Shown here one piece after another: positions 12,001 through 18,000 of a DNA stretch of 64,000 bases. This DNA is from a plasmid. Numbering within the stretch: the stretch's first letter is position 1; every line of letters begins with the position of its first letter. A program made the position numbers. The stretch lies in sequence record NZ_CP137558.1. The stretch is one strand, 5' to 3'.

Positions 12001-15000
12001 CCACATGATAGGCAAGCTAAAGAAGGGCAGCTCATTTGGTGGTTGCATCCGCTATGTTACAGGCAAGGACGAGGCGAAAATCATCGCCTCGGATGGTGTG
12101 TTACTCGGCACGAATGCCGAGATAACGCAAAGTTTCGAGTTACAGAGGCAGCTAAATCCAAGGATTAAGAAGCCTGTGGGACACATTGCATTGAGCTTCA
12201 AACCCGAGGACAAGCCACGTTTGACGGATGAGTTTATGACTAAGATTGCCCTTGAATATATGCAGATGATGTGCATCACCGATACTCAATTCATCATCGT
12301 AAGGCATCACAACACGGACAATCCACATTGTCATATCGTGTATAACCGCATCAACAATGAGAGCAAACTCTTATCAGACAGGAATGATTACAGGCGTAAT
12401 GAGCAGGTGACCAAGGCTCTAAAATCCAAGTATGGACTGACCTACGGAACGGACAAGAGCAATACTAATACTCGCAAGTTACGCAATGCTGAGCGTGCCA
12501 AATACGAGATTCACAATGCCGTCAAGGATGCCTTGAAAGGCGCTGATAGTTGGCAGAAGTTCAAGAATGAACTTGCAAAGCGAGGTGTTCACTTGGAGTT
12601 TGTCTATCTGGATAAGGAGCAAACCAAGGTACAAGGCATCCGTTTCTGCAAGGATGGATATAGTTTCAAGGGTACGCAGATTAGCCGAGAATACAGCTTT
12701 GGCAAACTGAATGCGAGATTTGAGGGAACGGAGAACCTTTTATCAGCAAGAGCCAAATCTGCTCAGCAATATGAGCAGGGCTGTCATAAGAATGAGCAGG
12801 TGCCATCCATATCGGAGAGCAGCCAGGACCCTTGGGGCGGTATTTCTTCCATTGGACTTTTTGCTCCAGCCAATGCTCAGACCTTTGAGACATTCCCAGA
12901 GGATGAATCAGTCAAGAAGAAAAAGAAGAAACGCAGAAGAGGCTTTAGCCTTTGATGCAAGTTACAAACCATTCAAACAACAAAAGAAAGATGAAAGAAG
13001 AACTATTGGAAGCCATCTACGGCACAGTTGAGAGATTGGAGCAGAAAGTCGATGAACTTTCTGCCTCACCTAAGAACGCAGGAGCGGAAACAGTTCTCAG
13101 CCCTGCAAGTGTTGATACAAGCAAACTTGAAAAAGCCATCCTTTCTGTATCCGCAAGAGAAGAGGAAACTATTGGCAAATTAGCAAAATTAAGAGAGGCG
13201 ATATGCGTCTATATCGACCTTACCAAGAAAGAAGCAAGCAAAGATGAACAGCGAAGCAAACTCTTGTTTGATACCATTAATCAGGTGAAACAAGAGCAGA
13301 ATGTCACATCAAAATTTGTACAGGACAAACTTAACGCAATGGACAACACACCTCAAAAGAAAGTCGTAACCCATCGCTTCGAGCCTACTTCAAAGTATGT
13401 TCTTCTTTTCATTGGAGGCTTGGCTCTGTCTTTGGTTATCTCAATTTGGGGCAACCTCACCCAATGGCAAGAGTACCAAGATTGGGAAGAGGCGGACTTT
13501 AAGTATAGGGCATTGAAGATGGTGCTTCCATCTGACGACCCGAATATTCACTACATCGAAAAGCATTTTTCTGTTTGCCGAGATGAGAAAGTTATAGATG
13601 ATGTAAAAAATCGTGTTGCAGCTTACGAAGATTCTGTTCTCAAATACAATGAAATGGTACGGATGGCTGCATACAAAGACAGTGTAGCCAATGAACTTCG
13701 CAGAGAGTCTAATAGCATAAAACGTACTATTAAAAATTACCAATAATTTTTATCCAATACCCCAATGAGATGGAATTTACATTCAAATCCATTTCATTGG
13801 GACATATAATTAAAACTGTTTATTTGTTTCTAATAACATATTCAAATTCATCAAAATTCTCATATCCTAATTCTATTAAGACTTGGCGACTGTGTTTCCT
13901 GTCATCTTTGGTGTTGAACTTGGGGATTATGGGGAGACGAAGGATGATCTTGTCTTTATGTTTGGCATGAGTGTTGAGCCAGACAAGGTTGTCGATAACT
14001 TGCCGGTTGGGCTTACCTGTGTAGGCTTGATAAATGGCAGGATTCATGTCCTTGATGTCGATGATAAAGGAGTCAATGTATGGGGTGACTTTCTCCAAGT
14101 GATGGCGAGGTACGTTTAGACTCGTCTCCATCGTAAAGTGCCATCCCTCTGGGCATAGTTCACAAAACTCCTTTATGAATGAACTCCACAGAAGCGGTTC
14201 ACCTCCACCAAAACAGATGCCGCCTCCTGTAGCTAAGAAGTAGAGGTTGTCCATCTCCACGTTCGCCATCAGCAGTTCTGTATCCACCTCCTGCCATACG
14301 CCGTCAGCATCAAGGCATTGGGGATTGAGACAGTATTTGCAACGAAGCGGACAACCGTGGAATGCCACAAGCGTGGTGACGCCCTCGCCGTCTATCGTGA
14401 GGCGGTGGCGGTCGATGCAAATGAGTGGGGCGGTCTTCATGTTATTCTACTTTAAATGTGAAAGGAACGGTGGCATGTGATTTCACCACCTTTCCGTTTT
14501 TCTTGGCAGGAGTCCATTTCGGCATGCTTTTCAGTACTCGGATGGCTTCCTCGTCGAGGATAGGGACAAGACTTTTCTCCACCTTGATGTTGCTCAAACT
14601 TCCGTCCTTGTTGACGGTGAAACCAAGGATGACTCTGCCTATTGGCGCGCCTTCCCGACATTCTTTTGGATATTGAAGGTTGGTCTTGATGTATTGCGTC
14701 AATGCAGTCGAACCGCCTGGGAATGAAGCCTCTTCGAAAGTATCTTCTCTTTTGATGACGGGAGCCGTTCCTCTAATTCTGACTTCGGGAACGATTCCAG
14801 CCACGACTTCCCCTAAGGCACTTTCGTTGAATATTAGAGTGATGATATTGAGCTTGTCTCGGCTCATTTCAGATAGTTTGATGCTTCGGTCTATGAAGCC
14901 GATGTATTGCACGGTTATCGTGTCGCCTTGCTCCACTTCGAGAGTGAAGTTTCCAATGACATCAGTTATTGCATACTTTCCCGAAAGTTTAGCGATGACG

Positions 15001-18000
15001 GAGGCTCCAATAAGCGGCTCATTGTCCTCGTCGCTAATGAGATGCCCTTGAACGAAGAGCATTCCTTTCTTGCTGAGAGAATCTTTCGCTTGGAGTAGGG
15101 CGATGTCGTTGGTGGTGTATTTTCGGAACTGGATAGGGATAACCTTTTCAGACTTAGGCGGTGTCGATTTGTAATATCCCTTCTGCGTGGCGCACGATGT
15201 GGCGGATGCGGTGAGGGCGGTGATGCCCAAAGCCACTCCTGCGACCTTGATGGCTTTCCCTGCCATCTGTCGGAGGTGCAGTTCGTGTTCTAAGTCCCTC
15301 ACGTCTTGCTCGCATTTCGGGCAAGTGCCCTTGCATTCGCCCTTAAAGTGGCATTCTTCGGGTGAATAACTGATTCCGTTGGCATCCGCGATCTGCTTGC
15401 GGATGGCCTTGAGCGTGTTGCAAATGTTGCGTCCTCTTGTTGCCATGATTTTTCCTTTTTTATAGTTACTGCACGTGGATGTAGACAGGAAGCGTGTATT
15501 TTGATTTCACCGCCTTGCCGTTTTGCTTGGCAGGAATCCACTTTGGCATACTTTTCACCACCCGGACGGCTTCTTTGTCAAGGTCAGAATAGACGCTTTT
15601 CTTCACTTTGATGTCATTTAGATTTCCATCTTCATTGACAATGAAACTAACGACAATTTTTCCTTGTATGCTGCAATCGCCCTGTATGTTTGGATAGCGA
15701 AAATTGTCTGCAATATATTTCATACACGCCGCTATGCCACCAGGAAATGACGCTTCCTCATCAGCATTATCAAATATTTTGCTGCTTTCAATGGAATCTA
15801 TACCAATGGCAGACCTGGTGACAGCATTCCTGCCTTGATTTTTTGAGGAATTGCCTTTGATATTCTTTTTTATCTCTTTTGTTTCTAAGGATGGATTGTA
15901 TGAAGCCTCCCCGTCCTTTCTGTTTTCTTCTTCCAGAAGTTTCTCCTTGTTGCCAAGAGAAATGGCTCCTTCTAATTGTCTGTTTCTTGGGTTCGGTTCT
16001 TCTTTTTTAACAATGATTGTATCACCTGTAACCATGTCTGAAGCATTTCGCTGTGGTTTTCCATCAGAACAAGCCGTTAAAGCAACAAGTCCTGCTGCAA
16101 TGCCAACGACCTTGATGGCCTTTCCTGCAATCTGCCTACGTCGCAATTCATACTCCAAATCTCTCACATCTTGCTCGCATTTGGGGCAAGTTCCCTTGCA
16201 CTCACCAGTGAAGTGACATTCTTCTGGTGAATAGGCAATCCCATTAGCATCTGCTATTTGTTTGCGAATGGCTTTGAGAGTGTTGCAAATGTCTCTTCCT
16301 CTTGCCATAGTTTATTTTCTTTTATGATTATGTCTCTTTTTGATAACAACAATTTCCCCTGTGAGTCCTCCACTTTCTGTCAAAGTGATAACATTGAGCT
16401 TTTCGAGGTTCATTTCAGAGAGTTTGCGTTTTCTTATCGCAGTTAAAAATGCAATAATATAGCCTATTCCAAAACAATTCTATATACTTCATATAGGCCT
16501 CTCTTTCTTTGAATTGGTTCTTTTTGAAATAAAAGAATAAATGGCATACTGGATACAAATTGGCAGGAGATTGACTATCCCCAACCAAACAAACACTATG
16601 AGGCTCAAAGATAAGGCTGCCCCATTGGTTACAACTAAGGAAATAATGCCTATCAAAAACAACGTCACAAGACTATTCAATATTATTTGTCTTTTCAGCA
16701 AAAATTCCTTTCTAACAGATTTTGCCCAAAGCCAAGCAAGCAAAGCCATACTCAAGTTAAACAAGGAAATACAAATCGTAAGCATAATGCCCATAAAATA
16801 TCCCAAGTACAAGACCACTGCAGGAATAATATAGGCAACAAATGTGGCCACAAATACTGTGAGCAAATATTTCTTTGTATCTTTATCTCTTAGTTTCATA
16901 TTACGTTCATTATATTTTACTTTGTATTGTACATTACAATGAAATGCTGTTTTATACTCATTTCCTGCTACAAAAATAACATTTTGTAGTGATAATCGGT
17001 TATAATCCCTTGAAAATCTACGATATTCTATCGTAATTTAGACAATATGAAAATAGAATCTGTAAATGTGGAACTTAAATAAATGGTTTTCTAACACAGC
17101 AAGATATATGTTTGCAATGAATATTTGTTCTTTTGCCATACTCTTGAAATGACAAAACCGGATAATTGCACAGAGTTGTGGCAAATGACAACAGATGTGC
17201 TCATGAGGGCTTAATTTTTATATCTCGTCAGTTGTTTCTACCGTACAATAGAAACATCCGCCCTTAATAATGTCATAACCAACAATTTTTTCATCTGCAA
17301 AAGCGTCAAGAACTCTTTTTGAGAAAAAGACATCAGAACCTTGTGGATATAGCAAATCTTGGTTTCTATATTTCGGTGTTAGTGTGATTCGCTTTGGGAA
17401 GTAAATATCATTGTCGTTGTAAAACTCCTTTCTGTTTTGAAATACTTTACATTTTTCATTGTATATATCAATAAACTCGCACTTAGGATAAACAAATTCT
17501 GTATCTTTAATAATCGGCACAAACAAAAGATAAAAGTCAGATGCGATGCCGTCAATTTTTATTCGCTTCAGAATGTATTCTGATTTACGAACGTGTATTT
17601 GCTCAAGTACATTTTTAACTTTTGCGCTAACAACTGCTTTCAAACTTAGGCATGCAGGCGAAAAATCCATGAAATCAACATAGTCTTTCCTTTTGATAAT
17701 TTGTCCCTCTATTTCATTGGGCATATTAATATATATGTCGTGCTTATTCTCAAAATACATCGAAATATTCCTATTTTTCTCAGACATATAGTCCAGAAAG
17801 TCCTTTGATTTTATCTTAACAGTATGTGGCATTTCGTATCTGCCTCTGATTCTTTTATCTAACGTAAATGTTATTTGATAGTACATAATTCGTTACTTTA
17901 TTAATGCATCATAGTTAATCTTTAATATTTATCTAAATCTTCAAAAGTTATATTTGTGATACCATTTTTTTCAATTAGTTCTTTAACTCTTAATGCAATA

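Follow-up and report, generated by a model that had tools for sequence, protein, structure and literature searches.

Activases of glycyl radical enzymes (GREs), a lineage of radical S-adenosylmethionine (SAM) proteins, are thought to serve the switching-on of large GREs. Small glycyl-radical carriers such as GrcA/YfiD are also known, and the C-terminal radical domain of the class III ribonucleotide reductase NrdD has a Cys4 metal site beside its radical glycine. Extended signal peptides have been described from autotransporters, with extended signal peptide region (ESPR) motifs of ~25 aa, and from the Tat pathway, with long signal peptides, twin-arginine regions and proofreading chaperones. 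In a 64,000-nucleotide (64-kb) stretch of the plasmid record NZ_CP137558.1, hereafter the window, a 206-aa radical SAM enzyme related to GRE activases is encoded together with two paralogous precursor proteins (paralog A and paralog B). NCBI names the paralogs 'energy transducer TonB' and the enzyme 'radical SAM protein / pyruvate formate lyase activating enzyme'. The conserved link to the enzyme is not the TonB C-terminal domain (TonB_C) of these paralogs; it is an N-terminal domain of ~62 aa with five cysteines (Cys5 domain), plus the hydrophobic segment that follows it. Enzyme and Cys5-domain partner make up a two-component cassette that is complete in itself and occurs widely among Bacteroidales, and no published description of the pairing or of the domain was found in the full-text literature.

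The linkage was surveyed in 80 loci sampled at species level from species-representative genomes, with neighbourhoods of +/-6 kb, and a hidden Markov model (HMM) of the N-terminal domain was run against the six-frame open reading frames (ORFs) of these loci. A Cys5-domain gene adjoins the radical SAM gene on the same strand in 76 of the 80 loci by HMM, and in 78 when two copies cut by contig ends are counted. The other two exceptions are a locus with a 5'-truncated TonB_C remnant (L016) and one without a partner (L060). Each of the 78 loci holds one to five partner genes, upstream of the radical SAM gene in Prevotellaceae and downstream of it in Bacteroides and Muribaculaceae. Partner and enzyme genes are mostly separated by about -7 to +5 nt. 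In Prevotella melaninogenica, a tandem array of five paralogs precedes the radical SAM gene and overlaps it by 16 nt, and other contigs encode two paralogs plus the enzyme or a single 147-aa Pfam-less protein plus the enzyme; common to all these partners are the N-terminal ~60 residues of the window paralogs. All-against-all clustering of the neighbours recovered the radical SAM family in 77 loci and the partners in 73 loci (129 genes), and the next family in only 7. No third conserved gene, GRE family or exbBD was found among the conserved neighbours of the 80 loci. When the search was started from three divergent partner proteins instead, a radical SAM gene was adjacent in all three loci, one of them frameshifted and decaying. 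The pairing is conserved and specific rather than incidental. An earlier note on this DNA had proposed the association of an activase with Cys-rich proteins and had named a nearby GRE or a chance neighbourhood as grounds for abandoning it; the association is borne out (78 of 80 loci plus one remnant) and neither of the two was encountered in the survey or in the neighbour clustering.

The enzyme occurs in at least ~580 Bacteroidales species, including dominant human gut, oral and rumen genera (Segatella/Prevotella, Bacteroides, Muribaculaceae). Among the 600 pattern matches listed for species-representative genomes, at least 582 are relatives, and the named Bacteroidales taxa comprise Segatella, Prevotella, Bacteroides faecis, B. 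xylanisolvens, B. cellulosilyticus, B. reticulotermitis, Muribaculaceae, Duncaniella and Sodaliphilus. Some records of metagenome-assembled genomes carry labels that are not Bacteroidales or are non-specific (Lachnospiraceae, Staphylococcus, 'bacterium') and may represent mis-binned contigs. A decaying cassette was seen in L090 (5001-6489), on a 32.5%-GC contig full of small ORFs, with a partner truncated to 84 aa and a radical SAM gene split by a frameshift into two ORFs.

In the window, three minus-strand genes are packed operon-like and without overlap. The paralog A precursor (280 aa; 15466..16308) consists of the Cys5 domain, a signal-peptide-like segment, a low-complexity linker and TonB_C (residues 202-275; 15484..15705, minus strand; Pfam PF03544, 58.3 bits). 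It is followed by the paralog B precursor (334 aa; 14442..15446), in which CarbopepD_reg_2 (residues 132-215; 14802..15053, minus strand; Pfam PF13715, 45 bits) and TonB_C (residues 256-332; 14451..14681, minus strand; Pfam PF03544, 60.0 bits) come after the Cys5 domain and the signal-peptide-like segment, and by the radical SAM gene (13820..14440; Pfam Radical_SAM 53 bits, Fer4_12 36 bits). Read from the DNA, 19 nt lie between the paralog A stop and the paralog B ATG and 1 nt between the paralog B TAA and the radical SAM ATG; the stops and starts do not overlap as the earlier note had assumed, although true gene overlaps exist in other genomes. Its three ORFs and its decayed third copy are otherwise confirmed. 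The latter is a 3' remnant of a CarbopepD_reg_2-type paralog (16312..16426, minus strand), of which the last ~38 codons are left, cut at 16426. Its translation ends, before the stop, in KLSEMNLEKLNVITLTESGGLTGEIVVIKKRHNHKRK and matches the C-terminal end of the product of L004 1387-2067, the CarbopepD_reg_2-type gene with which the intact three-gene cassette of this contig begins. As, in addition, the blastn homology of five loci (L004, L008, L009, L011 and L014) to the window stops at 16425-16426, the third copy is real.

The N-terminal domains of paralogs A and B are identical at 63 of 75 positions. Between the two, the proportion of synonymous differences (pS) in this domain is 0.84 and saturated, the proportion of non-synonymous differences (pN) is only 0.09, and pN of TonB_C is 0.29. 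These values indicate old paralogs under strong purifying selection and exclude chance or recent conversion as explanations of the similarity.

The Cys5 domain covers codons 1-62 of paralog A (16123..16308, minus strand; G4, C8, C31, G35, C37, G39, C41, C44, G62) and codons 1-63 of paralog B (15258..15446, minus strand; C9, C32, C38, C42, C45, G63; HMM E 4.5e-46). It follows the pattern C-x22-C-x5-C-x3-C-x2-C and, numbered as in paralog A, has 18 invariant or near-invariant positions that extend into the hydrophobic segment (G4, C8, L11, R15, A19, N22, I24, C31, G35, C37, G39, T40, C41, P42, C44, E45, G62 and G69; at most 5 exceptions each among 256 non-redundant sequences). The cysteine positions of the earlier note were those of paralog B and are correct for it; the His that it included beside the second Cys (His32/33 next to C31/C32) is unconserved in the family. 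In an exhaustive profile search, 2,886 clusters at 50% identity carry the domain (2,421 at E<=1e-10). Its start lies at residue 1-3 in almost every one of the best 150 of these 2,886, and the few starts at residues 14-42 are probably over-extended start calls. A homologue search with the 80-aa N-terminal domain returned only proteins of at most 140 aa, many of them frameshifted fragments.

The element that follows the Cys5 domain had been read in the earlier note as a transmembrane helix in a TonB-like, energy-transducing protein. A signal peptide is the better reading. The uncharged stretch after G62-K63 has a median length of 21 residues and ends in a lipobox-like motif ([L/M/..][T/S/..][G/A/S]C) in 163 of 241 non-redundant sequences (67%; shuffles 27, maximum 39), the lipobox Cys being located 13-22 (median 17) residues past the last charge of the n-region. 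Among the remaining 78 sequences, 40 (17% of the family) end in small-x-small before a Gln (AxA↓Q; shuffles 18.1 +/- 3.5), and most members with neither ending are near-misses. Signal peptidase I sites with Gln at +1 are typical of Bacteroidetes (Q-rule, PMC5837995). In paralog A the hydrophobic segment KAIKVVGIAAGLVALTAC (16069..16122, minus strand) ends in the lipobox LTAC (Cys80), and in paralog B the segment (15192..15257, minus strand) ends in the lipobox-like ATSC (Cys85); the predicted cleavage sites are ...GLVALTAC↓SDGK and ...LTASATSC↓ATQK, respectively. The short charged n-region of a conventional signal peptide is thus replaced by the 62-residue Cys5 domain, with the basic residues R56-R58 and K63 kept beside the hydrophobic h-region, where they would hold the Cys5 domain on the cytoplasmic side. 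We know of no precedent for a five-Cys domain occupying the n-region of Sec or lipoprotein signal peptides. ESPR and long Tat signal peptides are similar in having an extra conserved element ahead of the h-region, but there the element is not a folded five-Cys domain and none is known to be tied to a radical SAM enzyme.

For a signal peptide, the h-region is also unusually conserved. G62 is present in 98% of the sequences, A68 and G69 in 97% and G73 in 77%, A64 is conserved as well, and the spacing is GxxxG-like. Such a pattern is suggestive of contacts between helices, either in the precursor or in the remnant left by cleavage, and the remnant may then have a role of its own.

The passengers behind the segment vary widely. 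Among 98 partner C-termini, 54 have TonB_C, 24 have CarbopepD_reg_2 and many lack a recognisable domain, and partner lengths range from 90 to 514 aa. The TonB_C domains seen in both window paralogs by the earlier note were indeed found, but TonB_C is not the conserved element of the partners. Partners of the CarbopepD_reg_2 type (L001 4246-8016; L004 1387-2067; window 16312-16330) have a conserved, very basic tail (…SHKEKNKKKCK, …YNHKRK, …HNHKRK). With genuine TonB transducers the partners share, where present, the C-terminal TonB_C and an N-in topology with a periplasmic C-terminus. They differ in that the hydrophobic segment ends in a lipobox or AxA↓Q instead of forming a permanent anchor, in that a His occurs within the first 16 h-region residues of only 2 of 241 sequences and no His/Ser motif is conserved, in that exbBD is unlinked, in that TonB_C is dispensable, and in the Cys5 N-terminus itself. 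The cleavage endings, the near-absence of His and the missing exbBD linkage indicate that the partners are better read as lipoprotein or secretory precursors with a predicted cleavable signal peptide than as anchored transducers of the TonB type. Thousands of database proteins with the name 'energy transducer TonB' are probably cleaved lipoproteins and not TonB. In B. thetaiotaomicron, TonB7 and TonB11 combine CarboxypepD_reg with TonB_C, and neither a Cys-rich N-terminal domain nor a radical SAM neighbour is mentioned for them (Pollet et al. 2023, 10.1101/2023.07.07.548152); their locus tags could not be linked to the Cys5 family.

These observations bear directly on the public annotation, according to which the paralogs would be ordinary TonB transducers, the enzyme a spare PflA or NrdG for a GRE encoded elsewhere, and their adjacency meaningless. 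The good TonB_C scores of 58-60 bits and the agreeing NCBI protein names speak for it. However, besides the cleavage motifs, the scarcity of His and the lack of conserved ExbB/ExbD genes nearby, the linkage holds in 78 of 80 species in either gene order and tracks the Cys5 domain even where TonB_C is missing, the enzyme falls below the cutoffs for PflA, NrdG and other GRE activases, and the cassette moves as a unit on a mobile element. This reading is strongly disfavoured and we regard it as very improbable.

The enzyme itself is a close structural homologue of the E. coli activase PflA. The motifs reported in the earlier note (GCPLRCKYCLNP and GGGEPLL) are both present, as part of a set that consists of CX3CX2C (C30/C34/C37), a DGEGVT loop and GGGEP. 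In 94 family members C30/C34/C37 and F77-GGGEP82 are invariant. An Asn that follows the cluster motif is likewise invariant, and the DGxG loop, GGG...GGGEP and the ribose and DxK motifs are present as well. The alignment with pyruvate formate-lyase activating enzymes (PFL-AEs) that the note had described is reproduced by a profile of these 94 members, which matches E. coli PFL-AE (PDB 3C8F) over residues 18-195 with an E value of 5e-23. An AlphaFold2 model (mean predicted local distance difference test, pLDDT, 90.8) likewise has PFL-AE 3C8F/3CB8 as its top Foldseek match in the PDB (TM 0.85, rmsd 2.2 A, 27% identity), followed by QueE at 0.72 and then by viperins. Like PflA, the enzyme has a single predicted [4Fe-4S] site and no ferredoxin insert, and similarity to PflA and the GRE activases of TIGR02493 and TIGR02494 extends over the full length, the fold and the motifs. 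Unlike PflA, it is 206 and not 245 aa long, it has a family-specific invariant RHR on strand 1, and in the DGxGxR motif D17, G18 and G20 are invariant while the Arg position is an invariant Thr (DGEGVTT as opposed to DGPGIR in PFL-AE). The model has its lowest pLDDT at this loop (residues 14-16), and Vey et al. (2008) reportedly saw the DGxG loop of PFL-AE become ordered upon peptide binding.

The best NCBIfam matches of the enzyme are all GRE activases, namely TIGR02494 and then the activases of hydroxyproline dehydratase, sulfopropanediol dehydratase and indoleacetate decarboxylase, PflA and CutD. The HMM search suggested in the earlier note thus placed the enzyme nearest to GRE activases, as expected there, but below the cutoff of each: TIGR02494 scores 132.2 bits against a cutoff of 174.35, TIGR02493 100.3 against 231.75 and NrdG2 55 against 131, and QueE reaches 34 bits. 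No SPASM match was obtained in Pfam or NCBIfam; the protein lacks a SPASM/twitch domain, ends with a partial TIM barrel and has no invariant cysteines beyond C30/34/37. With this motif set, the lost Arg and the missing insert and accessory domains, the enzyme is best described, on profile and model grounds, as a separate, minimal family that is sister to the GRE activases and lies outside every curated activase family. It is probably protein-directed.

A further difference from described GRE activases concerns the neighbourhood, as no GRE lies near the radical SAM gene in the 80 loci and the constant neighbour encodes a Cys5 pre-signal domain of 62 aa without RVxG[FYW]. The window itself agrees with this, and the earlier note was right that it encodes no GRE: its longest ORF has 590 aa, and ten of its largest ORFs (464-590 aa) have no PFL-like or Gly_radical Pfam match and instead encode fimbrillin/LRR (leucine-rich repeat) proteins, transposases, a peptidase C10, a sugar transferase, SusD and similar proteins. 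The RVxG[YFW] fingerprint occurs only twice in the window, both times in stop-interrupted frames.

Taken together, the evidence points away from a stray activase and towards a system of protein modification that is as yet uncharacterised. We tentatively favour the reading in which the radical SAM enzyme has as its target the Cys5 pre-signal domain that the neighbouring partners expose to the cytoplasm, with a probability of roughly 0.45. Since the sole universal partner is a small cytoplasmic domain under extreme constraint, since one enzyme serves one to five partners, and since no other gene is conserved nearby, the Cys5 domain is the most economical target. The ratio of one enzyme to many partners also resembles, by analogy, activase/substrate and maturase/precursor systems. 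That the domain is the substrate is something we infer from linkage and conservation.

Under this proposal, the Cys5 domain would fold in the cytoplasm as helix, Cys-loop and helix, with four of the five Cys probably binding Zn or Fe-S. The enzyme may bind it as PFL-AE binds the Gly loop of PFL, and the 5'-deoxyadenosyl radical would then take a hydrogen atom from the domain. The product could be either a stable, glycyl-type backbone radical on an invariant Gly or a modification or crosslink involving the fifth Cys. Candidate radical glycines are G4, within the R/K-G-K/R tail at the N-terminus, the Cys-loop residues G35 and G39, and G62 at the membrane border. Judging from its motifs, the hydrophobic segment would send the variable passenger, whether TonB_C, a CarbopepD_reg like the N-terminal extension (NTE) of SusC, or a short tail, through Sec, and would be cut by signal peptidase II at the lipobox or by signal peptidase I at AxA↓Q. 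The modified Cys5 domain with its GxxxG-like helix would remain as a small cytoplasmic protein anchored in the inner membrane.

Several observations weigh against this reading. The enzyme stays under the curated cutoff in all 25 listed NCBIfam families, the Arg of the activase loop is replaced, and a size of 206 aa is also that of QueE, a small-molecule enzyme. The Cys5 domain has no RVxG[FYW] glycyl-radical motif, Gly23 of its 'ANG' stretch is only 49% conserved and otherwise D or E, and the invariant glycines of the Cys loop could be purely structural. No match to the domain was obtained in Pfam, NCBIfam, a PDB sequence profile search or PDB Foldseek, and the AlphaFold2 model of the paralog A N-terminal domain (helix 3-22, Cys loop, helix 42-60) is of low confidence (pLDDT 58). 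Finally, in L060 (Bacteroides cellulosilyticus DSM 14838) an intact radical SAM gene (5989-6600) has no Cys5-domain gene within +/-6 kb, unlike in any other locus; here the partner may have been lost, or its gene may lie elsewhere in the genome.

Alternatively, the Cys5 domain could be a membrane-tethered docking or regulatory partner, possibly metal- or redox-sensing, that recruits, sequesters or switches the enzyme, whose real substrate would be a small molecule or a protein elsewhere. The logic would be that of anti-sigma/sigma pairs or of trans-envelope signalling, in which the sensing would fall to the periplasmic TonB_C or NTE-like domain. This arrangement is unlikely in our estimation, although it finds a parallel in FecR and zinc-binding anti-sigma (ZAS) regulators, which similarly have a cytoplasmic Cys-rich N-terminal domain, one membrane segment and a periplasmic domain of the kind found in TonB-dependent transporter machinery (here TonB_C or SusC-NTE-like). 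QueE as the second structural match, the lost Arg and the solitary enzyme of L060 would also fit. The signal peptidase motifs, however, predict that the periplasmic part is severed from the N-terminal domain, which would break a direct transmembrane relay, and many partners have no periplasmic domain at all. The profiles also favour protein-directed GRE activases far over QueE (132 against 34 bits), and neither a sigma factor nor a GRE nor a metabolic gene is conserved nearby in the 80 loci. The likeness to anti-sigma factors and zf-HC2 that the earlier note had drawn does not hold up either: five diverse N-terminal domains gave no Pfam match, zf-HC2 included, at E<=10, the motif is CxxxCxxC without a conserved His and not the zinc motif HxxxCxxC, and a sigma-like gene is present in only 7 of 80 loci, all of them part of a Bacteroides synteny. 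In the window, no gene for an extracytoplasmic function (ECF) sigma factor flanks the cassette. In the Bacteroides lineage, 5-7 of the 80 loci (e.g. L025 and L031) have ECF-sigma-like and FecR-like genes some kb away, within 6 kb upstream of the radical SAM gene, a neighbourhood that is lineage-specific synteny and is not conserved elsewhere.

Another possibility is that the N-terminal domain serves as a recognition element, in the style of the leader of a ribosomally synthesized and post-translationally modified peptide (RiPP) or of a Tat signal peptide bound by its chaperone, and that the enzyme modifies the C-terminal passenger in the cytoplasm before export. A constant N-terminus with a hypervariable C-terminus and several precursor genes per enzyme do recall RiPP clusters, and the domain directly precedes the export signal. 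Radical SAM RiPP pairs (SCIFF/ranthipeptides, sactipeptides) are also alike in joining one radical SAM enzyme to one or several tandem genes with a Cys-rich N-terminus and variable C-termini. They differ in that the window enzyme, at 206 aa, lacks SPASM, twitch and a RiPP recognition element (RRE), with only weak N-terminal matches to PapB and CcpM (~12-19 bits), and in that the partners are exported proteins of 90-514 aa with folded domains and not short peptides. No target motif is common to the passengers, some of which are short low-complexity tails and others folded domains unrelated to one another (TonB_C, CarbopepD_reg_2), and Sec substrates leave the cytoplasm unfolded and usually soon after synthesis. 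Modification of the passenger therefore seems rather improbable.

Returning to the Cys5 domain as the target, a bolder version would make it a minimal membrane-tethered protein-radical carrier of ~60 residues, armed on an invariant Gly by the stripped-down activase. We consider this particular form doubtful and hold it as a long shot. GrcA/YfiD and the NrdD radical domain would be comparable as small domains offered to a PflA- or NrdG-type activase, but they have no detectable sequence or fold similarity to the Cys5 domain, which lacks RVxGY and is N-terminal with an export signal after it. Glycyl radicals cleave the protein backbone upon exposure to O2. A cut at G62 would leave a textbook lipoprotein signal peptide with a short n-region (K-A-x-x-x-A-G...L-T-A-C), and so the cassette could, as a radical carrier, be an oxygen-triggered switch through which the cytoplasmic redox state would control either the export of periplasmic proteins that bind TonB boxes or are SusC-NTE-like, or else the release of the Cys5 domain. 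A glycyl radical at the glycine of the 'ANGI(S/A)Y' stretch was considered and rejected, as this Gly is conserved in only 49% and is otherwise D or E.

Independently of the exact chemistry, the cassette presents a very widespread member of the GRE-activase lineage with a different, obligate partner and no GRE involved. Its novelty lies in a radical SAM enzyme of the GRE-activase type with a non-GRE protein partner, in a partner domain that is undescribed, and in the unusual placement of this domain within a signal peptide. If the enzyme does modify the Cys5 domain, this would represent a new class of radical SAM protein substrate and would connect radical chemistry in the cytoplasm with the biogenesis of the envelope or with TonB-dependent transport in the gut bacteria that are the main degraders of polysaccharides; a real protein radical or O2-triggered switch would be categorically new. 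The system is compact, with two genes and a soluble 60-aa domain.

The context of the cassette indicates mobility. Segatella copri has identical copies of all three proteins (WP_218413588/89/90), and window positions 8720-17167 are collinear with S. copri HDD05. A mobile backbone lies beside the cassette (6699-13746, plus strand) and includes two tyrosine integrases (6699-7955 and 8019-9230), DUF3408 (10928-11410), NikA/MobC (11595-12008) and a MobA/VirD2 relaxase (12005-12955), all on the plus strand. A clade of cassettes with 81-100% identity, along with parts of the mobilisation region, is common to S. copri, P. bivia, P. corporis and P. brunnea, and other copies from Prevotella, Bacteroides and Muribaculaceae genomes are ~50-61% identical. 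The high identity across species and the shared mobilisation pieces show that the two-gene unit has also spread horizontally as a self-sufficient module. The exact proteins occur on an S. copri record flagged as plasmid (WOZ86534-36) and on chromosomes as well, the longest contig with paralog B measuring 93,148 bp, and a tblastn search of PLSDB 2024 for plasmid-borne copies of the cassette gave no match. In P. bivia (L013), two tRNA genes are located ~4.7 kb upstream.

At the downstream end, a 36-nt imperfect inverted repeat (13742..13820) occupies the 73-nt gap between the convergent radical SAM gene and the ORF at 12952-13746, and probably acts as a bidirectional terminator at the end of the operon. 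No Rfam element (riboswitch or RNA leader) was found in window positions 9000-22000 or in 11 related loci, and a scan for sigma-70 promoters and terminators, which is ill-suited to Bacteroidales promoters, returned fewer matches than shuffles. An identity as a defence system was rejected, since PADLOC shows only a weak and generic pVip similarity (E 5e-4).

At the other end, a low-GC block (16427-26000; 34-39% compared to 42-48% on the opposite side of the cassette) starts where the third paralog is truncated and is probably the insertion that destroyed the first cassette gene. It contains an ORF for a multi-pass membrane protein of 136 aa (16489-16899), an insertion sequence with a DDE transposase (18025-19251) and ORFs without Pfam or PADLOC match (17218-17886, 19364-19828 and 19839-20798). 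Elsewhere in the window, three paralogous proteins of ~580 aa combine a Mfa-like fimbrillin domain with BspA-type leucine-rich repeats (29903-31675, 41210-42940 and 48908-50662, all on the minus strand), and one of their genes adjoins a DUF772/DDE transposase (47008-48696). A streptopain-like peptidase C10 with an N-terminal Spi/I69 inhibitor prodomain is encoded at 4541-5935 (plus strand); a similar C10 protease is found near the L005 cassette, probably by coincidence.

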